In this document: piece by piece, positions 2,589 through 30,490 of the stretch
Layout of the letters: every line of letters begins with the position of its first letter
How positions within the stretch are numbered: the first letter of the stretch is position 1
NCBI GenBank assembly: GCA_042850255.1
Contig: AP031373.1
Coordinates: 240,001 to 272,000, forward strand
DNA: 32,000 bases
Reading direction: 5' to 3'
From: Nanobdellota archaeon
Lineage (GTDB): Archaea > Nanobdellota > Nanobdellia > Nanobdellales > Nanobdellaceae
The notes under the pieces: generated by a model
Database searches by the model: none
What the model was told of the DNA's origin: nothing
The model's input: the letters and a program-made list of their open reading frames with translations, nothing else
Program-made: the position numbers and the translations under genes

Positions 2589-4074
<1,486 letters not shown>

Positions 4075-4083
4075 TAGTTTTAA

Positions 4084-6273: not shown

Positions 6274-7098
6274 TTATCCAAACAAGTTTATTATTATACC
6301 ACCTTTTGGAACTAAAGGAACTACAATATCAAATGTTATTATTACTAAAAATAAAAATATTAATATATATTTAGCTCCAGCTCTATAAGAATCATCGTAC
6401 ATCTTTCCCATTGCCAATCCAGCAAATATTGCTTGAATTATTGACATATAATACATAAGATTTGTAACAAAATTAATATTTATAGAAGATGTTTGACCTG
6501 GTAAAGAAATTTGTAAAAATGGTAATAAAAATATTTCAAATGTTATAATAATACCTAGGAAAAATATAAAAACTAAATATGAGTGTATTATATTTTCGTG
6601 CATTTCAGATTTTCTAGCTTCTTTTATCTTTCTAACTTCGACTATACTATTTATAATCGCTTCTAATCCTTCTTCTAAGTTTCCTCCTCCTTTATATATA
6701 TCTATCAATGATTTTATAGTTCTTTTTATCATATTATTATTACTCTCTTCTGCAAATTCATTAAAAGAATCTTCTACACTGATACCCCAATCTATTCTAG
6801 AAGATAAATTTTTTATTAAATAGTTTATTCTTCCATAATCATTATTTTCTATTTGTTTTAATGCTAAAGGTAATGATAATCCAGATTTTAATAAATCTAT
6901 TAAATCTAATGAAAACCTTATAAATTGTTCTTCCTTTTCTTTTTCTATTCTATTATTTATTTCTTGATAAATTAAATATGGAAATATCCCAAATATTATT
7001 CCAGTTACAATTGAATTTAACAAACCAAAATTAAATATATAATATAAAATAAAAATAATTGAAATTATTACAAAAATAGTAATTATTTCTATTCTCAT
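6274..7098 (-). CDS. Type II secretion system F-domain membrane protein (TadC/FlaJ C-terminal-half-like)
   Basis: An N-terminal TM pair is followed by a soluble T2SS-F-like segment (LDLIDLLKSGLSLPLALKQI...IDWGISVEDSFNEFAEES...IDIYKGGGNLEEGLEAI) and C-terminal TMs. An ATGA overlap links it to the upstream gene. Confidence 0.7.
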   Translation of the reverse strand: MRIEIITIFVIISIIFILYYIFNFGLLNSIVTGIIFGIFPYLIYQEINNRIEKEKEEQFIRFSLDLIDLLKSGLSLPLALKQIENNDYGRINYLIKNLSSRIDWGISVEDSFNEFAEESNNNMIKRTIKSLIDIYKGGGNLEEGLEAIINSIVEVRKIKEARKSEMHENIIHSYLVFIFFLGIIITFEIFLLPFLQISLPGQTSSININFVTNLMYYMSIIQAIFAGLAMGKMYDDSYRAGAKYILIFLFLVIITFDIVVPLVPKGGIIINLFG

Positions 7099-8477
7099 TC
7101 TTTTGACATATTATTAAAAGCTACTATAAAGCCTGTATTTATTAAAGGCAATAATACATAAGTTATTATTTCTAATATTCCCTCTATATTAACATTATAT
7201 GTTTGTTGAAGTACAGACATCAACATTATTCCTATAGATATTATTATCATTGGTAAAGTTAATACCATCCCAACGTATAAATCTGAAAAAGTTTTCATAA
7301 CCTGACTAACTTTTTTCAATAAATTATTATATCTTATCATTTCTTGTTGGGAATATAATATTAAAAATTCTGATATTTTTCTTCCAGACTTAATAGTTAA
7401 TATAAGTTCTTCAAAAAAATCTTTTAAATCTTTAGATACAGTTTCTGATGCAACTGATCTTAGAGCATCTGTCAAACTTTCTCCTAAATTTATTCTATCT
7501 AATACTTTTTCAAATTCCTTTGCTAAAAATCCATATTCTTCAGTTTCACTTATTATTTTAATTATATATTTTAATTCTATCCCTGCTCCGGCCAAAGAAG
7601 CCATATGAATTACAGCAAATGGTAAATTTTTTTCTATATTTTCCCTAATTACTTTTTTCCTATATTGGAAATAATAATAAATAATAAAAGTTAAAAAAGC
7701 AAAAGTACCAAGACCATATAATAAATATAGGAAATCATATAAATAAAAAGAAATAAATATTATAATAATAAGAAAAGAAAATAGGGCTAGAAATATTAAA
7801 GATATGAATTCTTCTGGTGATATATTATAATAAGACTCTTTTAACATAGATTTAAGACTAAAATATATTCTAGGATTACTATCTAAAATCTTTTTAGACA
7901 ATTTTCCAAATATTTTATATGAATATCCTATAATAATTTTCTTTATCTCTTCATAATAATTTATTTGTTCCTTTTTTCTTATTTTTATATTTATTTTCTT
8001 TTTTTCTCCTTTTTCTTTTTCCCTTTTTTTGAATATAACACTTTCAGCTTCAAAATATTTTTTCTCAAATTTTATTTCATCCTTTTTAAATATATCGGGA
8101 AATATTTGATTTATTTTATTTATATTTTCATTTATTCTATATTTATAATTTTCTATATATTTCTTTTCTTCTTCAGTTTTTTCTTCTAACTCATCTAAAA
8201 ATTTTATTATTTTTTCTGCATTATTTATCATATTTATAAGATCATATAAATAAGTATATTTTTTCTTTTCTAATTCTTCTATTTTTTTCTCAACTATCTT
8301 TATTCTTCTATTATATTCTTTTTCATCTAAATATCCTTCATTATATAACTTTTCTATATATTTAATAAAATTTTTTTCTTTTTTAATCTCTTTTACAATA
8401 TTTTCTACTTTTTTAATATGATTTTTTATTTTTTCTATATTTTCTTCTACATTTATTAAAACTTCTTTATTAATCAT
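7095..8477 (-). CDS. Type II secretion system F-domain membrane protein (TadB/FlaJ N-terminal-half-like) with a ~220-aa N-terminal coiled-coil extension
   Basis: The T2SS-F-like segment is LPFAVIHMASLAGAGIELKYII...EYGFLAKEFEKVLDRINLGESLTDALRSVA...IKSGRKISEFL, flanked by TMs. I moved the start to the internal Met (MINKEVLINVEEN, cat at 8475-8477). The track ORF start at 8642 would overlap the divergent ATPase gene by 123 nt. Confidence 0.7.
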   Translation of the reverse strand: MINKEVLINVEENIEKIKNHIKKVENIVKEIKKEKNFIKYIEKLYNEGYLDEKEYNRRIKIVEKKIEELEKKKYTYLYDLINMINNAEKIIKFLDELEEKTEEEKKYIENYKYRINENINKINQIFPDIFKKDEIKFEKKYFEAESVIFKKREKEKGEKKKINIKIRKKEQINYYEEIKKIIIGYSYKIFGKLSKKILDSNPRIYFSLKSMLKESYYNISPEEFISLIFLALFSFLIIIIFISFYLYDFLYLLYGLGTFAFLTFIIYYYFQYRKKVIRENIEKNLPFAVIHMASLAGAGIELKYIIKIISETEEYGFLAKEFEKVLDRINLGESLTDALRSVASETVSKDLKDFFEELILTIKSGRKISEFLILYSQQEMIRYNNLLKKVSQVMKTFSDLYVGMVLTLPMIIISIGIMLMSVLQQTYNVNIEGILEIITYVLLPLINTGFIVAFNNMSKE

Positions 8478-8519
8478 GATAAATATTTTATATATCCCAG
8501 GATATATTAATTTTATATT
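8478..8519. promoter_or_regulatory. 42-bp AT-rich divergent intergenic region between the membrane-protein operon and the ATPase gene
   Basis: GATAAATATTTTATATATCCCAGGATATATTAATTTTATATT has TATA-like runs facing both directions. Function is inferred only from position. Confidence 0.3.
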
Positions 8520-10013
8520 ATGATAAATATAAAATTCATTGATGAAATAAAAATAAATGTACCAAAAAATAAATTCGAGACAGATATAATTTATCCAATA
8601 ATAGAACCTTTTGCTTATGCGCATATTTATTTTGATAGACAATCTTATAATTTAATTTATGAAATTATAGAACCAAAATTATCAGAAAATGAAAGAAAAG
8701 TTTATCAGGATGTTATAATTTATATAGAGAGATTATTATACATAAAATTATCTGATATAAATAATATAAATGATGTAATAAATTATTTACAAAGATTATA
8801 TGACTTTGTTTTAAAAGATTTGGGTATTACATTAGGTAAGGATTCTTATGAGAAAATATTTTATTATATTTTTAGGGATTTATATGGATATGGAAAAATA
8901 GAACCTTTAATTAGAGATCCATTAATTGAAGATATAGAATGTTCAGGTGCAGATTTACCAATATTTGTTGTTCATAGGTATTTTGGTAATTTAAAAACAA
9001 ATATAATTTTAAATGATAAAGAAATAAGAGATGCTATAGAAAAATTTGCTTTAAGATCTGGAAAACATATTTCTTATGCAGAACCTTTATTAGATGCAAC
9101 ATTACCAGATGGTTCAAGAATAAATGCAACATATTCTCAAGAAATTACTACTAGAGGACCTACTTTTACAATAAGAAAATTTAGAGAGTCTCCATGGACT
9201 CCTATAGAATTAATAAGATTAGGAACTGCGACCCCGGAAATATTTGCATATTTATGGTTAGCAGTCGAATTTAAGAAAAATATAATAGTAATTGGAGGTA
9301 CTGCTTCTGGAAAGACTACAATGTTGAATGCTATAGCAATGTTTATTCCTCCAGAAGCTAGAATAGTATCTATAGAAGATACTAGAGAAATAAGATTGTA
9401 TCATCAAAACTGGGTTCCTTCTGTTGTAAGATATGCATCAGATAAAAGTAGAGAAATAGATATGTTTGAACTATTAAGGATGTCGTTTAGACAAAGACCT
9501 GATTATGTAATTGTTGGGGAAGTTAGAGGACAAGAGGCATATGTAATGTTCCAAGGTATGGCATCTGGTCATGCTGCTTTATCTACAATACATGCAGAAG
9601 ATACTAAATCATTAATAAATAGATTAGTTACTCCACCAATAAGTTTACCAGAATCATTAATAGAATTATTAAATGTTGTTGTAATAATGCAACATGATAA
9701 TTTTTTAGGAACTAATTTAAGAAGAGTAAAGGAGATTGACGAAATAATAAATTATAATAGATTTAATAAAGCATTTTTGTGGAATCCTTTTAAAAGAGAG
9801 TATTTAGAAAATAATAGAAAATATTTATTCAAATTGATAGAAAAAGATTTTGGAATAAGATATAGAGATTTATATGAAGAATATATTACAAGAGTAAAAT
9901 TATTAAAAAGACTTGCAGAATTAAATATATCAGATTTTCAAACATTTTCTAAAATAATACAAACTTACCATTATAATAAAGAATATGTATTAAATTATTA
10001 TAATATTAGATAA
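8520..10013 (+). CDS. FlaI/ArlI-PilB-type (VirB11 superfamily) secretion ATPase
   Basis: Walker A is GGTASGKTTMLNA. The Asp/Walker B region is SIEDTREI...RQRPDYVIVGEVRGQEA, the His box is GHAALSTIHA, and the PDGSRINAT motif is present. Confidence 0.9.
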   Translation: MINIKFIDEIKINVPKNKFETDIIYPIIEPFAYAHIYFDRQSYNLIYEIIEPKLSENERKVYQDVIIYIERLLYIKLSDINNINDVINYLQRLYDFVLKDLGITLGKDSYEKIFYYIFRDLYGYGKIEPLIRDPLIEDIECSGADLPIFVVHRYFGNLKTNIILNDKEIRDAIEKFALRSGKHISYAEPLLDATLPDGSRINATYSQEITTRGPTFTIRKFRESPWTPIELIRLGTATPEIFAYLWLAVEFKKNIIVIGGTASGKTTMLNAIAMFIPPEARIVSIEDTREIRLYHQNWVPSVVRYASDKSREIDMFELLRMSFRQRPDYVIVGEVRGQEAYVMFQGMASGHAALSTIHAEDTKSLINRLVTPPISLPESLIELLNVVVIMQHDNFLGTNLRRVKEIDEIINYNRFNKAFLWNPFKREYLENNRKYLFKLIEKDFGIRYRDLYEEYITRVKLLKRLAELNISDFQTFSKIIQTYHYNKEYVLNYYNIR

Positions 10014-10029
10014 TTTTTTATTAAAATTT

Positions 10030-10053
10030 GGGGTCTAGGAGGTATATAGTCTC
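10030..10053 (-). other. 3'-flank strand of the 23S processing helix
   Basis: AGGAGGTATATAGTCTC (10037-10053) is the exact reverse complement of 12964-12980. GGGG at 10030-10033 faces CCCC(C) at 12986-12990. Confidence 0.65.
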
Positions 10054-12963
<2,910 letters not shown>

Positions 12964-12990
12964 GAGACTATATACCTCCTTTCATCCCCC
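12964..12990 (-). other. 5'-flank strand of the 23S processing helix
   Basis: GAGACTATATACCTCCT (12964-12980) pairs with 10037-10053. Confidence 0.65.
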
Positions 12991-13084: not shown

Positions 13085-14779
13085 GTGTCTTTTACAATTA
13101 TGAACAAAAATAACAAGAAAAAAGAGGAGGATTTCTCTGAATGGTATAATTGGATTGTAAGAGAAACAAATATTATAGATGATAGATACCCCGTTAAGGG
13201 TATGCCTGTATACTTTTCCTATGGTTATATAATGATAAGAAATATTCTAAGAGCTTTAGAAGATGAATTAGATAAAAATGGATTTGAACCTTATTGGTTT
13301 CCTGTTCTAATACCATATGATATTTTTAAAAAAGAATCAGAACATATAAAAGGATTTGAAAAAGAAGTTTTTTATGTAACACCAGCAAAACCTATTGAAG
13401 AAGAAAAAAATTTAATTTATATATTAAGACCAACATCAGAAACCGAAATGTATTATATGTTTTCATTATGGATAAAATCCCATAGAGATTTACCATTATT
13501 AACTTATATGACAAATACTGTATATAGATATGAAACAAAAGCTACAAAACCATTAATGAGGGGAAGAGAAATATTATGGAATGAAGCACATACTGTACAT
13601 AAAGATATTGATGATGCTCAAAGAATGATTAAGAAATCTATGGAAATTTATTCAAAAATATTTTGGGATTTATTATCTGTACCACATATATGGGTGATGA
13701 GACCTAGTTGGGATAAATTTGCAGGTGCAGATTATACTTATGCTGCAGATACTATAATGCCTGATGGAAGATTTTTACAAATTGGTACTACTCATTTATT
13801 AGGTAGAAATTTCTCAAAAGCCTTTAATATAATTTTTGAAGATGAACATCCTTTTATAAAAATTGATAAAAATAAATTTGAAGCTTTTGATGAAAAAGGA
13901 AATAAATATGAAATAGAAATATATGAAAATAAAATTAAAATTTTGTATTATGAAAATAATGAAATAAAACATATATATGAATCTGATATAAAGTTTAATG
14001 GAGAAATATCTGAGGATAACAGAGAATTAATAAACTTATTACATGAGAAAATAAAAGAATTTTTTGGAGAAGTAAAATTAAAAAAAGAAAAATTTGTATG
14101 GCAAACATCTTTTGGAATAGCTATGAGAACCTTAGCTGCAGTAATATCTATACATGGTGATGATAAAGGTCTAATATTACCATTTTACATTGCTCCAATT
14201 CAAATAATAATAATTCCAATATATTATTCTGAAGAAGAAAAAAATAAAGTATTAGAATTCTGTGAAAAAATATATAATAAATTAAAAGATAAATATAGAG
14301 TAAAAATTGATAAAGATGATACAAAAAGTCCTGGATGGAAATTTAATCAATATGAAATGTTAGGAGTACCAATTAGGATTTCTATAGGAAAAAAGGAAAT
14401 TGAAGATAATTATATAACAGTATCCGTTAGAAAATTCAATGAAAAATCTCAAAGTTATTATATAGAACTTGAAAAAATTGATGATGAATTGGAGAATATA
14501 ATAGAAAATTATGAAAAAGAATTAAAAGAGAGGGCAAAAAAATATTTTGAAAGCAAAATAATAAAAACAGAAAAAATAGAAGATATAGAAAAAAATATTG
14601 ATAAAGGAGTAGTATTTAAGGTACCTTTCTGTATGAGAGAAGAATGCGCAGATAATATTAAGAAAAAATATAATATGGAAGTAAGAGGAACTGATATAGA
14701 ACCTGAAATATCTTCAGGAAAATGCATATTTTGCAATAATGAAGCAAAATATTATGTATATTTAGGTAGATCTTACTAG
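13085..14779 (+). CDS. proS: Prolyl-tRNA synthetase (archaeal/eukaryote-like class IIa) with an internal ~80-aa insertion
   Basis: Motifs include FSEWYNWIV...DRYPVKG, LRPTSET, YRYE, GREILWNEAHT, QIGTTHLLGRNFSKAF, WQTSFG, HGDDKGLILP, and a C-terminal Zn-like FCMREEC...CIFCN. The track start at 13085 is GTG; an ATG at 13100 (MNKNN...) is an alternative start. Confidence 0.9.
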   Translation: MSFTIMNKNNKKKEEDFSEWYNWIVRETNIIDDRYPVKGMPVYFSYGYIMIRNILRALEDELDKNGFEPYWFPVLIPYDIFKKESEHIKGFEKEVFYVTPAKPIEEEKNLIYILRPTSETEMYYMFSLWIKSHRDLPLLTYMTNTVYRYETKATKPLMRGREILWNEAHTVHKDIDDAQRMIKKSMEIYSKIFWDLLSVPHIWVMRPSWDKFAGADYTYAADTIMPDGRFLQIGTTHLLGRNFSKAFNIIFEDEHPFIKIDKNKFEAFDEKGNKYEIEIYENKIKILYYENNEIKHIYESDIKFNGEISEDNRELINLLHEKIKEFFGEVKLKKEKFVWQTSFGIAMRTLAAVISIHGDDKGLILPFYIAPIQIIIIPIYYSEEEKNKVLEFCEKIYNKLKDKYRVKIDKDDTKSPGWKFNQYEMLGVPIRISIGKKEIEDNYITVSVRKFNEKSQSYYIELEKIDDELENIIENYEKELKERAKKYFESKIIKTEKIEDIEKNIDKGVVFKVPFCMREECADNIKKKYNMEVRGTDIEPEISSGKCIFCNNEAKYYVYLGRSY

Positions 14780-15011
14780 GTGGCCGTAGGCCACTTTTAG
14801 TATATATTTTTCTTAGCGGATAACCTTGTGCCGTTAGGACACATTTCTCAAGGTGCATACCATCTCTCCAGGTTTGTCCGGAGTTGCCTCCGAACATTTA
14901 CCCTTCATCTTCATCAATGGTATGTCCTATATTTCTTTTTGTGTTGCCAGGGATTTCTCCCTCCGGATTAACCCGGTAACTTTACGGCAAGTGGACCTTC
15001 CCACGGCCACC
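14779..15011 (-). ncRNA. 233-nt structured RNA of unresolved class; SRP/7S RNA is the default guess but is not demonstrated
   Basis: GC-enriched island in AT-rich DNA. The termini pair over 9 bp (GGTGGCCGT 14779-14787 with ACGGCCACC 15003-15011). Read on the minus strand there are two GNRA-capped hairpins (GGGA-GAAA-UCCC at 14950-14961; GUUCGGAG-GCAA-CUCCGGAC at 14876-14895) and further long-range complementarity. A TATA-like TTATATAT sits at 15033-15040, which is -29 to -22 from the 15011 end. The ORFs predicted across it have rRNA-like junk composition. Confidence 0.6.
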
Positions 15012-15043
15012 TTTTTTATTTTTATCTTTCAAATATATAAGTT

Positions 15044-15205
15044 ATGCCAGAACAACAAACTCCATTATTTACCTATTTAGGATTATATAAATTTGGGAAA
15101 GAAAAATCAAAAATAAAATTAAATAGAAGAAATTTAATAATAATGGTAATTATTTTTGCGGCTTTAGTATATTTAGGAAATTTCCTATTATCATGTCTAG
15201 TCTAA
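15044..15205 (+). CDS. Small tail-anchored membrane protein, probable Sec61-beta (archaeal SecG) homologue (53 aa)
   Basis: Own translation: MPEQQTPLFTYLGLYKFGKEKSKIKLNRRNLIIMVIIFAALVYLGNFLLSCLV. It follows the GL.(R/K)(Y/F)...KI(K/R)(L/V) pattern and ends with a single C-terminal TM, resembling archaeal Sec-beta as I recall it. It falls below the ORF-track cutoff. Confidence 0.4.
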   Translation: MPEQQTPLFTYLGLYKFGKEKSKIKLNRRNLIIMVIIFAALVYLGNFLLSCLV

Positions 15206-15642
15206 CTCAAGATTTAGAATATAATAGAAGATTAAAAGAAGTTTTACATATATATAATGTATCCTTAAAAAATAATAAAGGATTAGAGACAATTAGGAAT
15301 TTTATTAAAGCTGTAGTGGACTATTATGATTATGTAATAGAAATATATTTGAAAAAGAAAGAAGAAGAAGGCATTATAGATAATATTCCGGAGACTCCAT
15401 TAAAAAGATATAAAAAATTTATAGAAATAATAGATAATAAAGAAATAGAAGAATTAACTAAATATTATCCAAATTTAAGAAGATGCTTAAATAATGAAAT
15501 AATAATAACTAACGAATTTAGGAGAACAATGATAATAAAATGTAAAGGATTAAATTTTGAATTTTCTATGGATATAAAAGTTTTGAAAGAAATAGCAGAA
15601 AATGTTAAAAAATTCTCTGAAATAATTGTAAAATATATATAA
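15193..15642 (+). CDS. Hypothetical protein (149 aa), helical and Lys/Glu/Ile-rich
   Basis: Long ORF whose stop overlaps the minD-like start (TAATG). No motif recognised. Confidence 0.5.
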   Translation: MSSLTQDLEYNRRLKEVLHIYNVSLKNNKGLETIRNFIKAVVDYYDYVIEIYLKKKEEEGIIDNIPETPLKRYKKFIEIIDNKEIEELTKYYPNLRRCLNNEIIITNEFRRTMIIKCKGLNFEFSMDIKVLKEIAENVKKFSEIIVKYI

Positions 15643-16397
15643 TGGCAAAAGTTATAACAATTTCTTCAGGAAAGGGAGGAGTTGGAAAAACATTTTTTTC
15701 AATAAATCTATCTAAAGCATTATCTTTACTAGATTTTAGAGTATTATTAATTGATTTCAATTTAACTACTCCAAATGTATCAATTAATTTAGGTCTTGGA
15801 AATGAAAAATATAATATACATAAATTTTTGAGAGGAGAGACAAGTATAATAAAATGTATTAAAAAATATGAAGATAATTTTTATATAATACCAGGAAGTT
15901 TGAACGTAGAAGATATAATAAATATATCTACAGAAAGATTACATGATGGTATATTTACAGTCTACAATAATTATGATTATATAATTATTGATTCTGCTGC
16001 AGGAATTGGAAAAGAAGCTACAGAAGCTTTGAAAAGTGCAGAAGAGGTTATAATTGTAACTAATTATGAAAAGTCATCATTAGTAGATGCTTACAGATTA
16101 ATAAAAGTTCTAAATAAATTAGATATAAATATATTGGGAATTGTTATAAATAAAGTAAGGAAAAGAATAGATTATGTAAAATTAGAAAGCTTTTTAGGAA
16201 AAGAAATAATAGGTATTATACATTATGATGAAAATGTACAAAAATCTATGGATAGTGGTATACCATTATTAGATTATAATATTAATTCTGTAGCATCTAA
16301 GGATATATTAGATATAGCTAGGAAAATTAGTGGAAGAGAATTTAAAGAAAAGGAAAATATATTAAGTAATATATTAAAAATATTTAGATGGAGATAG
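15642..16397 (+). CDS. MinD/ParA-family P-loop ATPase
   Basis: A deviant Walker A (SSGKGGVGKTFFSINLS) is followed by LIDFNL and the IIIDSAAG Walker B-like segment. Confidence 0.85.
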   Translation: MAKVITISSGKGGVGKTFFSINLSKALSLLDFRVLLIDFNLTTPNVSINLGLGNEKYNIHKFLRGETSIIKCIKKYEDNFYIIPGSLNVEDIINISTERLHDGIFTVYNNYDYIIIDSAAGIGKEATEALKSAEEVIIVTNYEKSSLVDAYRLIKVLNKLDINILGIVINKVRKRIDYVKLESFLGKEIIGIIHYDENVQKSMDSGIPLLDYNINSVASKDILDIARKISGREFKEKENILSNILKIFRWR

Positions 16398-16657
16398 ACT
16401 TTGAATTAGATAAAATATATGAAGCATTAGAGAAGAAAAAATATAAAAAAATATTATTACAATTACCAGATGGTTTAAAACCATATTCAAAGGAGATATA
16501 TGATAAAATAAAGGAAAAATATAAAGATCTAGAAATATATATATGGTTTGGAACAGACTTTGGTGGTTGCGACATACCAATATATTTGGATAAATATGGT
16601 TTTGATTTAATAATACATTTTGGACATGATAAATTCTATAAATTAAAACTAGAATGA
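16388..16657 (+). CDS. dph2: Diphthamide synthesis Dph2-like protein, N-terminal fragment only (89 aa)
   Basis: KKILLQLPDGLKPYSKEIYDKI...IWFGTDFGGCDIPIYLDKYGFDLIIHFGH matches the first ~95 residues of archaeal Dph2 (LQ.PEGL ... GACD ... DALIHLGH). The ORF then stops, and nothing downstream continues the homology. Confidence 0.6.
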   Translation: MEIDFELDKIYEALEKKKYKKILLQLPDGLKPYSKEIYDKIKEKYKDLEIYIWFGTDFGGCDIPIYLDKYGFDLIIHFGHDKFYKLKLE

Positions 16658-16881
16658 AAGATTATCTATTATTTTTAGGAATTTTGTTGGTAATAATAGG
16701 AATTTCATTAATAATGCTATATGGAATATTAAATTCTGGAAATGTAAAATATTCCGGAATTATATTAATAGGGCCAATACCAATAGTTATATCAAATTCT
16801 CTAGATTTGTTAATTATATCAATTATAATTCTATTGATTGTTATTATTCTTATTCTCCTCTTCTATAAAATAATTATATAA
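16654..16881 (+). CDS. Small conserved archaeal membrane protein (DUF131-like, GPIPIV motif)
   Basis: 75 aa with two TM segments and the central motif SGIILIGPIPIV, which I recall from the DUF131/TIGR00304 family. An ATGA overlap links it to the upstream ORF. Confidence 0.5.
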   Translation: MKDYLLFLGILLVIIGISLIMLYGILNSGNVKYSGIILIGPIPIVISNSLDLLIISIIILLIVIILILLFYKIII

Positions 16882-26412: not shown

Positions 26413-26487
26413 TGCCCCCACCGGGATTTGAACCCGGGTCTCGGGGATGAGGACCCCGTATCCTAGACCTGACTAGACGATGGGGGC
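26413..26487 (-). tRNA. tRNA-Glu (anticodon CUC), contiguous, no intron, CCA not encoded
   Basis: Reverse complement: GCCCCCA-TC-GTCT-AGTCAGGTCTA-GGAT-A-CGGGG-TCCTCAT-CCCCG-AGAC-CCGGG-TTCAAAT-CCCGG-TGGGGGC-A. This folds as a cloverleaf with a 7-bp acceptor stem, a T-loop TTCAAAT, and CTC at positions 34-36. Confidence 0.9.
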
Positions 26488-26540
26488 TATGGTAATTTTA
26501 TTATATAAATTAAAAAATCTATAGAATTATTAAAATATAT

Positions 26541-29243
26541 TTAAATACTATGGTTTTTTACTTTCATATATTTATTTTCTTCTTTGATAGCTATAGGAAC
26601 AAGATATCCAGATACTTTTCCTTCTGGTATCCTCCATTCCCCAAATGCTTCTAAATAATGTGTTCCTCTAAACGATCCCAGATGATTAGTTTTGTCATCG
26701 CGCGCATCGTATGGTATCCCCATTGGTCCTATTATATTTAATTCTACTTCCGATTCTGAAAATCCATATTTTTCTCTTAATTTTTGTAAGAAATATAATG
26801 GAGCATTGTTAAGAGGTTTTGTATTAAATAATACATAATCTACATTTAATTTCCTTGCATAATCTATTATTAATTCGTAAACTTTTCCCCAATTCTTATT
26901 AAACCATTTTTCACTATCTGGGAAAAATAGTTTTGATCCCATCTCTACAGAATCTATTAACCAATATTTACTACCTTCAGAATCTTTTGCTATATATCCT
27001 ATTATTATTCCATCAATCTTTCCTTTTTTTCTGATAGAATTTATATCTACTTTATCAGTTACTGCAAATCCCATATAAACAATCCTTGGGTCTAAAACAT
27101 ATAATACACTTCCTAGACCATTCAAGAATCCTGGATTATTATCATCTATAGCTGGTAAATGAGAACAAGATCCTGTAGATTCCCAACTAAACATCATTGT
27201 AGGAAATCTTCCTGTAAATGCTACTACATATTTTCCTCCATCTACTTTTCCACTTTTTATACTAGAAACTGTAGTTAATATATCCATAAAACTTTCCAAT
27301 CCTTTTTTATTTTTACCTATATATTTTGTTCCTATTTCAGATAACCTTTTTATTATTTCTTCATAGTTTCCATTTTTCAATAATTCTATTAGTTCTTTAG
27401 TTTTTGGTTTTATTTCTTTTGGTAAAGACTGATAGAATCCTTTTGCATTATCTAATTTTTCTTTCCCTACTATTTTTTCTAAATAACTATTTCCCCATTC
27501 TACATTTTTAGGATCTCTAGATCCAATAAAGGAATAAAATAAAGCTTTAACAGTATCTTCATATGAGATATTTATCTCTTCTCCATCGTTATTCCAAATC
27601 TTCCATATCTTTTCTTTTAATGCTTCAATATTTATTCCTTCTTTTTGCATAATAGATAATATTTCCCTTATTTTTTCATCATTCCAATAGTTATAAAGGA
27701 CTTTAGCTGCATTTATTAATGTTTCTTTTCTTCCCTCATCTATAAGATACTTTAAAGAAAAGGCCAAATTTAAACTTTCTTTTATAGTATATTTAGATAG
27801 AGATAGTCCTGTTTTTTCTTCTAAATTATGAATTATTTTATTATAATTTATAGGACCATCTTCTAAATCAAAGTTGACACCTAAGTTATATTCTATTAAG
27901 TATTTTAATTCTAATTTTTCTATTTGAGTATCCAAATTATCTTTTGTATTTTTTATATATTTTATAACATCTAGTTTATTATCCCACATTAGTCTATTTA
28001 AGATATAAATATTCATACCAGCCTTTGTCAAATTAACAAATTCTTTTGGTACATCTTTCTCTAAAGCTAATAAAGAACTTATGATGAACACTAAAGCTGA
28101 TGATATATCTTTATCTAATAAATCTAATACTATGTTTTTGTATTGCTCAAATTGGTTATTTTTCATAAATTCTATAGAACTTTTTACGAAATATTCTATA
28201 TCAAGATTAGATATAGCTTTTTCTGATACTTTAGATAAAGCTAATATAAATTCTTCAGAAAGATAGTAGTTTAATACTTTATTTTCTATTGCTGATTCTA
28301 TATATCCTATATAAGTTTTTAATACTTCTATATTTTTGTTTAATAAATCTGATGCTTTGTCTATATAATCTTCCAATCTATTTCTATCGTATTTTAATAT
28401 TTTTAATATACTATCTGCAAACAATTTGGCGATATTTTTATCTTTTTCAAAAATTTCTAGATACTTATTTATAAATTCTTTATATATGATTCTCTTCTTA
28501 TCTATTGTATAGTCTATAGATTTTATCGCATTAGATACATCTGATAAAGATTTTGTGATTATATAAATATTATCTATATTTTCCTCTTTTTTTGCTAATT
28601 CTAATATAACATTTCTGTAGGTGTTCTCTTTTATTTCTTTTTCTAGTTCTAAAATATTTTTAATATTCTTTAAAAAGTTCGATAAAGATTGTCTGTCTTT
28701 AGTTCTTGTCCAGAGATTTATAACTAGATCTTTATATTCTTCAAACTTCCTAGTTTTCATAAATTCTATAGAAGTTTCTATAAAATAATTAGGTACTCCA
28801 TCATATTTTTGAATTAACTCTGCCAAAGTATTCAAAAACTCTGACCAAAGTCTTTTGTTTTCTTTAAATATATGTTTCCCATACTCAAAAGCTAATGATA
28901 CACTAGAAATAAATTCGTTTAACTTTTCTTTATTTTCATCTTTTATCGTTATTACTTGGTCTAAATATGGAGAAAATAAATTTTCTTTTATAAGCATTAA
29001 AGAGTTTCTTACAAATTTTTCTGCAATTTTTGTATCTTTTTTTGTTAATTCTATTAAATCATCTAATCTTAATGAAAATATATTCTCAAATTGATATTCA
29101 GTATATATTCTCATATTTATGGCCTCTTTAGCATATTTTCTAAATATCCTCGCAGCATCGCGATTTTTTCTATAGAGTACTATAGACTTAATATAAGAGT
29201 CTAAATAGCATACACTCTTATAGGCAATATCTTTAAGCTTCAT
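26541..29243 (-). CDS. Large (900 aa) orphan protein: N-terminal helical region with an internal duplication, and a C-terminal alpha/beta domain with GNAT-like features (speculative)
   Basis: Uninterrupted 2.7-kb ORF with no N-terminal hydrophobic segment. NYFIETSIEFMKTRKFEEYKDLVINL (aa 152-177) repeats as EYFVKSSIEFMKNNQFEQYKNIVLDL (aa 350-375). The C-terminal WGKVYELIIDYARKLNVDYVLFNTKPLNNAPLYFLQKLREKYGF resembles the alpha3-beta5-alpha4 part of acetyltransferase folds. Confidence 0.65.
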   Translation of the reverse strand: MKLKDIAYKSVCYLDSYIKSIVLYRKNRDAARIFRKYAKEAINMRIYTEYQFENIFSLRLDDLIELTKKDTKIAEKFVRNSLMLIKENLFSPYLDQVITIKDENKEKLNEFISSVSLAFEYGKHIFKENKRLWSEFLNTLAELIQKYDGVPNYFIETSIEFMKTRKFEEYKDLVINLWTRTKDRQSLSNFLKNIKNILELEKEIKENTYRNVILELAKKEENIDNIYIITKSLSDVSNAIKSIDYTIDKKRIIYKEFINKYLEIFEKDKNIAKLFADSILKILKYDRNRLEDYIDKASDLLNKNIEVLKTYIGYIESAIENKVLNYYLSEEFILALSKVSEKAISNLDIEYFVKSSIEFMKNNQFEQYKNIVLDLLDKDISSALVFIISSLLALEKDVPKEFVNLTKAGMNIYILNRLMWDNKLDVIKYIKNTKDNLDTQIEKLELKYLIEYNLGVNFDLEDGPINYNKIIHNLEEKTGLSLSKYTIKESLNLAFSLKYLIDEGRKETLINAAKVLYNYWNDEKIREILSIMQKEGINIEALKEKIWKIWNNDGEEINISYEDTVKALFYSFIGSRDPKNVEWGNSYLEKIVGKEKLDNAKGFYQSLPKEIKPKTKELIELLKNGNYEEIIKRLSEIGTKYIGKNKKGLESFMDILTTVSSIKSGKVDGGKYVVAFTGRFPTMMFSWESTGSCSHLPAIDDNNPGFLNGLGSVLYVLDPRIVYMGFAVTDKVDINSIRKKGKIDGIIIGYIAKDSEGSKYWLIDSVEMGSKLFFPDSEKWFNKNWGKVYELIIDYARKLNVDYVLFNTKPLNNAPLYFLQKLREKYGFSESEVELNIIGPMGIPYDARDDKTNHLGSFRGTHYLEAFGEWRIPEGKVSGYLVPIAIKEENKYMKVKNHSI

Positions 29244-29360: not shown

Positions 29361-29398
29361 GGATTATATATAAAGGGATTATATATAAAGATATAAAG
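29361..29398. repeat. Tandem direct repeat GGATTATATATAAAG x2 plus a partial copy
   Basis: 29361-29375 and 29376-29390 are identical 15-mers. ATATAAAG is repeated again at 29391-29398. Confidence 0.7.
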
Positions 29399-29448: not shown

Positions 29449-29733
29449 CTATGGACCGCTTAAAATATATTCTGAACTATTTGTTATAACTATTATGTTT
29501 GTTCCATTATAATAACAGATTATATTTTCTTGTAGGCATAAATTATAATAAGTTTGATTTATTAAAAATGAATAATTTGGATATAATAATAATTTAACAT
29601 AAAAATCTTCTGCAATATATTTAGCAATATTTGGTTGGTAATAAAAGTTATTTTGCAATAAGGATAAGTAATATATTGTTATAAAAACTATTAAGACTAA
29701 ATATAATAAAATAAATTGAGATCTCATTTCCAA
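29449..29733 (-). CDS. Small N-terminally anchored, sequon-rich extracellular protein (pilin-like paralogue A, 94 aa)
   Basis: MEMRSQFILLYLVLIVFITIYY is a single N-terminal hydrophobic helix after a basic residue. There are four N-x-S/T sequons (NYS, NQT, NGT, NSS) and a CYYNG motif shared with paralogue C. Confidence 0.6.
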   Translation of the reverse strand: MEMRSQFILLYLVLIVFITIYYLSLLQNNFYYQPNIAKYIAEDFYVKLLLYPNYSFLINQTYYNLCLQENIICYYNGTNIIVITNSSEYILSGP

Positions 29734-30068
29734 TAAATATTTACATAATCTATTGAGCCATTGATAATATAAAACTCTTCTATACCTTGTGTTGCATTTG
29801 AAAGGGGCATATTATTAAATACTGTGATATTATTTATTTCTACATAATAATATGGGAATATATTTGTAACTATTTCATATAATGTTTGATTCAATTGTAT
29901 TGTATTATTTAAATCTAAATAATTTATTGAAATTAATGATGCCAATAAATCTTCCTTTACATATCCTCTCAAATATAGAGTATTATAATAATTTGTTGTT
30001 AATAAAAAATAAAGTATTATTATTGTAATTACTAATTCAAAAAATATTGTTATACTAAATGTTCTCAT
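29724..30068 (-). CDS. Small N-terminally anchored, sequon-rich extracellular protein (pilin-like paralogue B, 114 aa)
   Basis: MRTFSITIFFELVITIIILYF is the N-terminal helix, with an FFEL motif. There are five sequons (NNT, NQT, NIT, NAT, NGS). The gene overlaps both neighbours. Confidence 0.6.
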   Translation of the reverse strand: MRTFSITIFFELVITIIILYFLLTTNYYNTLYLRGYVKEDLLASLISINYLDLNNTIQLNQTLYEIVTNIFPYYYVEINNITVFNNMPLSNATQGIEEFYIINGSIDYVNIYWK

Positions 30069-30448
30069 GATATTAATACTTCTACTAAATATAAATTACC
30101 TTGATAATAACAAACTCTCCTAAATTCTATATAATTATTACTTACATTTTCTCCAAATGTTAATATTTCTCCATTATTTAAATTTTCATATATTATTTCA
30201 TATGGTCTACTTATATTTAAATTATCTAAAATGTTGGAATTAAAATCATTAGATGTTAAATTACATATAGGATTGGCATACTGTTCTGTTATTTCCTTCA
30301 TTATTATTCTTCCATCCATAAATTCATTAAAAAAATTTTCATATTTTGTATTTATAACATATATACTAGCAACCTTTTCCATAAGTAATAAAGTAATGAA
30401 AAATATTACAACAACGATTACTAATAATTCAAAAAATCTATCTAGCAT
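30065..30448 (-). CDS. Small N-terminally anchored, sequon-rich extracellular protein (pilin-like paralogue C, 127 aa)
   Basis: MLDRFFELLVIVVVIFFITLLL is the N-terminal helix, with an FFEL motif. There are three sequons (NLT, NIS, NVS), two Cys residues and a CYYQG motif. Confidence 0.6.
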   Translation of the reverse strand: MLDRFFELLVIVVVIFFITLLLMEKVASIYVINTKYENFFNEFMDGRIIMKEITEQYANPICNLTSNDFNSNILDNLNISRPYEIIYENLNNGEILTFGENVSNNYIEFRRVCYYQGNLYLVEVLIS

Positions 30449-30490
30449 ATACTAATATATCTTATAAAGCTTTTTATATATAAATCCTAA

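Follow-up and report, generated by a model that had tools for sequence, protein, structure and literature searches.

Nanoarchaeota fasten themselves to other archaea and feed on them by means of structures that have no known protein components (PMC11420986, PMC11104419). Strain YN1, a cultivated thermoacidophilic ectosymbiont of Sulfurisphaera (PMC11420986), and Nanobdella both have archaella as well as a second, unidentified appendage and a cone, portal and tube attachment organelle to which no proteins have been assigned. In a census of archaeal type IV pili, pilins matching the nanoarchaeal pilus ATPases were not found (PMC4858521). Here we describe three consecutive, overlapping genes, referred to below as the trio, in a stretch of 32,000 nucleotides (the window) from a Nanobdellota archaeon (assembly GCA_042850255.1, contig AP031373.1, positions 240,001 to 272,000). 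Their products match exactly the proteins YN1_3100, YN1_3090 and YN1_3080, which are encoded on a 773-kb contig of Nanoarchaeota archaeon YN1. The closest described systems with which they can be compared are the minor pilins and pseudopilins of bacteria, the class III proteins of archaea, the archaellum proteins ArlF and ArlG, and the single-transmembrane (single-TM) surface proteins of Nanoarchaeota.

A prediction made earlier from the DNA alone (the original prediction) had described the trio as small, anchored, probably glycosylated paralogues resembling type IV pilins. The trio is not discussed in the literature cited here on nanoarchaeal appendages, the attachment organelle or glycosylation genes. 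A pilin-like reading of it is new, and the evidence for that reading is architectural and contextual, not demonstrative.

Organisation and conservation of the trio

The three genes are consecutive and lie on the minus strand at the positions originally predicted, with products of 127, 114 and, in place of the 94 amino acids (aa) first listed, 92 aa. The features of the locus are as follows:

30065..30448, minus strand: open reading frame (ORF) 1, YN1_3100, 127 aa
29724..30068, minus strand: ORF2, YN1_3090, 114 aa
29449..29727, minus strand: ORF3, YN1_3080, 92 aa from the ATG at 29727 (NCBI annotation)
30065..30068, minus strand: ATGA overlap of the ORF1 stop with the ORF2 start, sequence read directly
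29724..29727, minus strand: ATGA overlap of the ORF2 stop with the ORF3 start, sequence read directly
30449..30490, 42 bp: divergent intergenic region common to the trio and rpL22, with two A/T-rich TATA-like boxes

We place the start of ORF3 at ATG 29727 and not at TTG 29733, because NCBI annotates it there and all homologues are 89-93 aa long. Both junctions of the trio are therefore 4-nt ATGA overlaps, which replaces the pair of 4 and 10 nt described originally. Judged by general archaeal promoter geometry, the 42-bp intergenic region is the predicted promoter of a leaderless or near-leaderless trio transcript.

Database searches with ORF1 returned 66 homologues at 49-100% identity, from Nanopusillus acidilobi, Nanobsidianus stetteri, Nanobdella aerobiophila and metagenomes. 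In a set of 1.84 billion representative proteins, ORF1 is represented by 11 clusters; beyond the database homologues, the profile search contributed only eight distant clusters, at 33-42% identity. The ORF3 family is 67-86% identical across genera. A narrower genome scan for the trio gave matches in Nanopusillaceae only, and among the 1.84 billion proteins the trio matched no Nanoarchaeum equitans-type sequence. Loci were compared from Nanobdella (L001), Nanopusillus (L003), divergent uncultured lineages (L004-L007) and L008-L016. The order of the trio, the gene sizes and the 4-nt overlaps are the same in every locus examined; both overlaps recur in L001, L003, L004, L006 and L016, and the homologues measure 121-136, 111-116 and 89-93 aa for ORF1, ORF2 and ORF3, respectively. 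The rpL22-rpS3 genes are always divergent from the trio. Since order, sizes, overlaps and the rpL22-rpS3 neighbourhood are the same in all loci, the comparison identifies the trio as an ancient module that is inherited as a unit and limited to a single nanoarchaeal lineage. In L004-L007 the trio is retained at only 31-40% identity; homologues in all lineages down to this level speak for the reality of the genes and rule out spurious AT-rich ORFs. A viral or mobile origin is also ruled out, as there is no meaningful PHROG match and the chromosomal synteny is fixed.

ORF1-ORF3 and their diverse homologues gave no meaningful match in Pfam, NCBIfam or PHROG; a match to ‘ocr’ at E = 0.06 is noise. 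The Nanopusillus orthologues Nps_03350/55/60 (= Nst1_208/207/206) are uncharacterised single-TM proteins to which Wurch et al. give no arCOG. With no match among PDB sequences either, the trio is, as far as its sequence goes, the undescribed family that had been suggested. The automatic names that the Joint Genome Institute gives to homologues of the trio (RNA polymerase subunit N, ABC permease, YqiK, YukJ, LptD) are mutually inconsistent and evidently spurious, and several homologue database entries are N-terminally truncated gene calls from an internal Met23.

The suggestion that the three proteins form one paralogous family stands in part. A BLASTP alignment of ORF2 with ORF3 covers 77 aa at 32% identity (E = 2e-4); the shuffle z is 5.4 for the whole proteins and 2.8 for the ectodomains alone, and hhalign gives E = 6.5e-4 at a probability of only 27%. 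ORF1, by contrast, shows no significant similarity to either past the hydrophobic helix and a short strand-N-G-S/T-strand hairpin motif, which rules out a family of three. The related C-terminal motifs VCYYQG, FYIING and ICYYNG were all found as quoted. Paralogy is thus supported, from the sequences, only for ORF2 with ORF3.

The trio had also been tentatively linked to the FlaI-like ATPase and the type II secretion system F-type genes at 6274-10013 of the window. In YN1 the FlaI-like gene and the split FlaJ genes lie ~20 kb from the trio. Ribosomal protein genes adjoin the trio in every lineage examined, no secretion gene occurs in the 1-8 kb covered per side, and these neighbourhoods rule out genomic linkage to FlaI/FlaJ at all loci examined.

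Ectodomains and N-terminal helices

Each protein of the trio has a single N-terminal hydrophobic helix, as first described. The part that follows is rich in N-x-S/T sequons, of which ORF1, ORF2 and ORF3 carry exactly the 3, 5 and 4 originally counted. Together that is 12 sequons over 333 aa, or 3.6 per 100 aa, whereas the other 27 ORFs of the window have 24 over 7860 aa (0.31 per 100 aa), a ~12-fold difference. When ectodomains were shuffled at their own composition, the excess held for ORF2 (P = 0.006) and ORF3 (P = 0.007) but not for ORF1 (P = 0.2). Across homologues the densities are 3.2, 5.1 and 3.7 per 100 aa in the ORF1, ORF2 and ORF3 families. A few positions are fixed (N63 in ORF1; N57 and N74 in ORF3; N103 in ORF2 except in the most divergent lineage) and the remaining ones turn over between homologues. 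Cysteine is rare in the window (0.33% in the other 27 ORFs), and ORF1 and ORF3 contain two each and ORF2 none, again as counted before; the pairs C62 + C113 of ORF1 and C64 + C71 of ORF3 are invariant in homologues.

An AglB-type gene is reported in N. acidilobi (Nps_01945), whose cell surfaces are labelled by the lectin wheat germ agglutinin, and Nanobdella carries aglBDE, with 735/736 of its coding sequences transcribed. Because of the conserved sequon enrichment, the invariant Cys pairs and the AglB-type gene in Nanopusillus and Nanobdella, the ectodomains are very probably extracellular and, by prediction, N-glycosylated, in agreement with the surface exposure originally proposed.

The strict rpL22-rpS3 synteny and the 42-bp promoter region common to all lineages could also be read as constitutive co-expression of a housekeeping bitopic membrane trio, such as a divisome-type FtsL/FtsB/DivIC-like coiled-coil complex or a secretion accessory. 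The long helix past the TM segment and the short C-terminal strands in the models described below would suit such proteins. However, the family is limited to one nanoarchaeal lineage and similar to no housekeeping family, and dense sequons that turn over between positions are typical of exposed surface proteins. We consider a housekeeping role very unlikely.

The N-termini are short, as had been claimed, but hardly basic, since MLDR of ORF1 is net neutral and the other two proteins start MR. ORF1 begins MLDRFFEL, and the FFEL(L/V)(V/I) stretch noted in two members is present as FFELLVI in ORF1 and FFELVIT in ORF2. The ORF1 family starts M-x-x-[KR]-x-[FLY]-E, with short forms M-K-x-[FI]-E (MKVFE, MKTIE); the Glu is kept in 12/13 sequences, always three residues past K/R, and stands at residue 5 in the short forms and 7 in the long ones. 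Invariant residues of ORF1 are C62-N63-L64, R111 and C113. In ORF2, which starts MRTFSITIFFEL, an invariant intramembrane Glu (E11) lies ~7 residues into the hydrophobic run. The Glu of this family occupies position 8 or 11, an N-G-S/T close to the C-terminus is conserved, and in Nanopusillaceae the protein begins M-[KR]-[ST] followed by F. ORF3 has no Glu in its helix and carries Gln4 in its place. It starts M-R-S-Q-F, its family M-[KR]-[SA]-Q-F, and Q4 and F5 are invariant in 5/5 diverse and 14/14 close homologues.

The strict co-inheritance, the translational coupling and the conserved polar residues in the membrane helices lead us to conclude that the three proteins in all likelihood act together, as the products of one operon: three bitopic proteins with the N-terminus in and the C-terminus out, whose ectodomains would be disulfide-stabilised and N-glycosylated, topology and glycosylation both being predictions. 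Transcription would start at the compact divergent promoter that the operon has in common with rpL22, and translation would be coupled through the ATGA overlaps. The small products would expose ectodomains of 60-100 residues, held by a disulfide in ORF1 and ORF3 and bearing several N-glycans.

The original prediction saw no canonical class III signal-peptide cleavage site in any member. This is true of ORF1. In ORF3, on the other hand, M-[KR]-[SA] before the invariant Q-F is, from its sequence, a plausible 3-residue class III leader. A relaxed scan for [KR][GAS] followed by a hydrophobic run, over ~86 kb from five loci, was satisfied by ORF2 and ORF3 family members only. PibD is reported to process leaders down to 3 residues (Ng 2009, as quoted in PMC10117864).

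Structural models and the pilin-like reading

AlphaFold models were available for ORF1 and ORF3, and the order of strands was taken from loop lengths. In the ORF1 model (predicted local distance difference test, pLDDT, 85.9) residues 2-56 form one continuous helix, followed by four strands at 83-126 joined by short loops; C62 lies in a loop and C113 in the third strand. By its secondary-structure layout the modelled protein is a pilin-like lollipop. The ORF3 model (pLDDT 84.9) starts with a TM helix (2-26), which a linker modelled at low confidence (26-31) joins to a helical hairpin and three short strands. Both models contain one small sheet of 3-4 strands plus helices, and neither contains a beta-sandwich. 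Foldseek matches to the C-domain of ribosomal protein S3 (8-15% identity, TM-score ~0.33, E ~0.03) were rejected as homology, because the helix-on-sheet layout is generic; that rpS3 lies next to the trio is a coincidence.

These features suggest a reading, with which we lead tentatively and at rather less than an even chance, in which the three proteins are type IV pilin-like subunits of an atypical, almost leaderless kind and can be compared with a minor pilin or pseudopilin set. The N-terminal helices would bundle via their conserved polar residues, Glu in ORF1 and ORF2 and Gln4 in ORF3. A 3-residue class III-type leader (M-[KR]-[SA/ST]) would be present in ORF3 and, within Nanopusillaceae, in ORF2, with none in ORF1. 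One of the cell's FlaI/FlaJ-like machineries would extract or prime this bundle, giving a short glycosylated surface structure for contact with the envelope or the host. The topology, glycosylation, hetero-oligomerisation, leader cleavage, filament formation and dependence on a type IV pilus ATPase that make up this scheme are all things that we infer.

A number of results weigh against the pilin-like reading. In ORF1 no G, A or S stands at position -1 (MLDR-FFE or MK-VFE), so that it has no class III-type site, and divergent ORF2 homologues start MN[SP]I[LI]IFE (MNSILIFE, MNPIIIFE), with no basic leader. No pilin, archaellin or class III model was matched (N_methyl, Class_IIIsignal, Pilin_N, Arch_flagellin and others, in NCBIfam and in Pfam to E = 10), and sequence-profile searches of the PDB gave chance matches only, none of them a pilin. 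Foldseek searches with the ORF1 and ORF3 models against PDB and viral models likewise returned no pilin and no significant match. The ORF3 model is less pilin-like than that of ORF1: with its flexible linker and helical hairpin it lacks the continuous helix of a classical pilin. Beside the trio, in the 1-8 kb fetched per side according to the contig (L001, L003, L004-L007, L008 and L016), no gene was found for a type IV pilus ATPase, platform or secretion protein, or for an A24 peptidase. A prepilin peptidase of the A24 type was not recognisable in two nanoarchaea (Makarova et al., PMC4858521) and none is annotated in N. acidilobi, for which the annotation was consulted and no whole-genome search made. 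The Nanopusillus orthologues were undetected in the published proteome (Wurch et al.), and single-TM hypothetical proteins are reported to be very common in these genomes, which makes for a high base rate. The pilin resemblance first proposed, with the lollipop fold sought in the models, is thus supported in part: the predicted layout of ORF1 and the plausible leader site of ORF3 speak for it, and the missing site of ORF1, the atypical model of ORF3 and the Foldseek searches speak against it.

Much of this also fits a static surface complex, that is, an uncleaved, signal-anchored, glycosylated hetero-oligomer in the cytoplasmic membrane, held by the intramembrane Glu and Gln and served by no filament machinery. 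Its role would be in the envelope, for instance in anchoring or organising the surface layer (S-layer), as part of the cone or portal attachment organelle, or in glycan or envelope biogenesis. The single N-terminal helix, the sequons and the disulfides all suit such a complex, as do the missing link to type IV pilus genes, the lack of pilin similarity, the flexible linker past the TM helix in the ORF3 model and the lack of an annotated prepilin peptidase in the lineage. Many single-TM surface proteins exist in these genomes, and the attachment organelle and second appendage of YN1 and Nanobdella would offer it a place among their unassigned components. A static complex leaves unexplained, however, the invariant Q4-F5 right behind [KR][SA] at the N-terminus of ORF3 and the predicted continuous 55-residue helix of ORF1 packed on a small sheet; and as the trio has no N. 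equitans-type match, any role would have to be lineage-specific. We regard it as the main rival and a credible explanation, though on balance not the one to expect.

A stator- or anchor-like accessory function of the ArlF/ArlG type, in which an uncleaved archaellin-like helix links the base of an archaellum or pilus to the S-layer, would agree with the size and the N-terminal anchoring of the trio. Homologues were detected in archaellated terrestrial nanoarchaea only, and the NCBI-derived matches, among which one from the non-archaellated N. equitans would have appeared, contain none from it. The published gene lists of YN1 (FlaBDEHIJF) and Nanobdella (ArlBHIJ), moreover, are without ArlG or without both ArlF and ArlG. 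Against this, the ORF1 and ORF3 models contain no beta-sandwich, no archaellin or FlaF/G-type model is matched, arl genes adjoin the trio in no locus, and FlaF and FlaG are reported as already identified in Nst1. Such a function has in our view only a slight probability.

For the pilin-like reading, its strongest form would make the trio the missing filament subunits of the nanoarchaeal type IV pilus-like machinery. Leaders of 0-3 residues would then need little or no peptidase processing, an internal K/R...Glu or Gln would replace the processed N-terminus, and the subunits would build or prime an unassigned host-contact structure of YN1 and Nanobdella, either the second appendage or the organelle's attachment tube or filament. 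We think this unlikely. We stop short of classing the trio with the type IV pilins, because sequence models, Foldseek similarity and genomic linkage do not place it among them; in build it resembles them, and it may also work as they do.

The trio is lineage-specific, deeply conserved and unannotated, and it supplies concrete candidates for the YN1 and MJ1 co-cultures. Should the proteins prove to be filament subunits, they would reveal how short a class III leader can become; otherwise they would still represent a new, conserved envelope complex in a minimal symbiotic cell.

Other genes of the window

The window has ~22% G+C and includes a tRNA-Glu; apart from the FlaI-like ATPase and the split FlaJ at 6274-10013, its genes are housekeeping ones. 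At 6274-10013 two genes encode the FlaJ/TadC platform, one product matching the N-terminal and the other the C-terminal half of ArlJ models. Against the FlaI model the ATPase reaches 388 bits, and because this is below the cut-off of 550 we take it for a FlaI paralogue. A 515-aa ORF with a listed TTG start overlaps the opposite-strand ATPase gene by ~120 nt, so that the start is probably placed too far upstream. At 15193-16397, a 149-aa ORF without a family match has a one-nucleotide overlap with the beginning of a gene for a MinD/ParA-type ATPase; some archaeal type IV pilus and archaellum loci are accompanied by FleN/MinD ATPases.

Next to the trio, a 900-aa ORF (26541-29243, minus strand) without Pfam, NCBIfam or PHROG match and a tRNA-Glu(CTC) (26413-26487, minus strand) separate it in YN1 from rpL19e/rpL15. 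At the same position Nanobdella has nothing, N. acidilobi a 67-aa ORF, L008 a 221-aa ORF and L016 ORFs of 158 and 103 aa, and the comparison points to 26413-29243 as a variable insertion hotspot. Between the stop of ORF3 and the beginning of the 900-aa gene, a spacer of 205 bp contains, at 29361-29390, a perfect tandem 15-nt direct repeat (two copies of GGATTATATATAAAG) with a TATA-like palindrome in each copy, which may be a duplicated promoter element.

The 16S and 23S rRNA and RNase P RNA genes lie at 2589-4081, 10043-12974 and 14778-15012, respectively. The two rRNA genes are unlinked, on opposite strands and of 55-61% G+C in a genome of ~22%. The RNase P RNA only just reaches the gathering score (85.5 vs 84 bits), and its gene adjoins the end of that for prolyl-tRNA synthetase. 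At 16388-16881, an 89-aa ORF matches only the first 57/302 positions of the diphthamide synthase (DPH2) model and is followed by a very hydrophobic ORF of 75 aa; the DPH2-like gene may be split or truncated. Split and truncated genes are known elsewhere in nanoarchaea.

Comparison with known systems

The resemblance to minor pilin and pseudopilin sets of bacteria (GspH-K, ComGD-GG, PilE/FimU-type) lies in small proteins (90-130 aa) from consecutive overlapping genes, each with an N-terminal hydrophobic helix that in 2/3 members has a Glu near its start. The Glu-less ORF3 recalls Glu-less tip subunits. As in bacterial type IV pilins, ORF1 is predicted to combine a helix of ~55 residues with a four-stranded sheet and a disulfide. 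The trio differs from them in having no Gly at -1 and no canonical leader, and its Glu stands at 5, 7 or 8-11 from Met1 and not strictly at +5. N_methyl and pilin models and Foldseek find no match, and no ATPase, platform or peptidase gene is adjacent.

Among archaeal class III proteins, the substrates of PibD and EppA, Methanococcus EpdA-C and the Sulfolobus pilins with 3-residue leaders come closest to ORF3, with its M-[KR]-[SA], Gln-Phe and hydrophobic run. The heavy N-glycosylation predicted for the trio is another trait of archaeal pilins and archaellins. Unlike class III proteins, ORF1 has no site and ORF2 has one in part of its family only, and the lineage has no annotated A24 peptidase. 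In solved structures of archaeal pilins and archaellins the heads are Ig-like beta-sandwiches, which the ORF1 and ORF3 models lack.

With ArlF/ArlG (FlaF/FlaG) the trio would share a small monotopic build, an N-terminal helix that stays uncleaved and an extracellular domain turned towards the S-layer. The fold of ArlF/ArlG is given as a beta-sandwich in PMC4425475; the trio differs in its models, which have none, and in matching no sequence model and showing no linkage to arl genes. Finally, the trio is comparable to the single-TM ‘hypothetical external’ proteins of Nanoarchaeota (Jarett et al. 2018), which are likewise lineage-specific, have an N-terminal TM helix and are presumed to be surface-exposed. 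That category evolves fast, whereas the trio is far more conserved in sequence, gene order and overlap.

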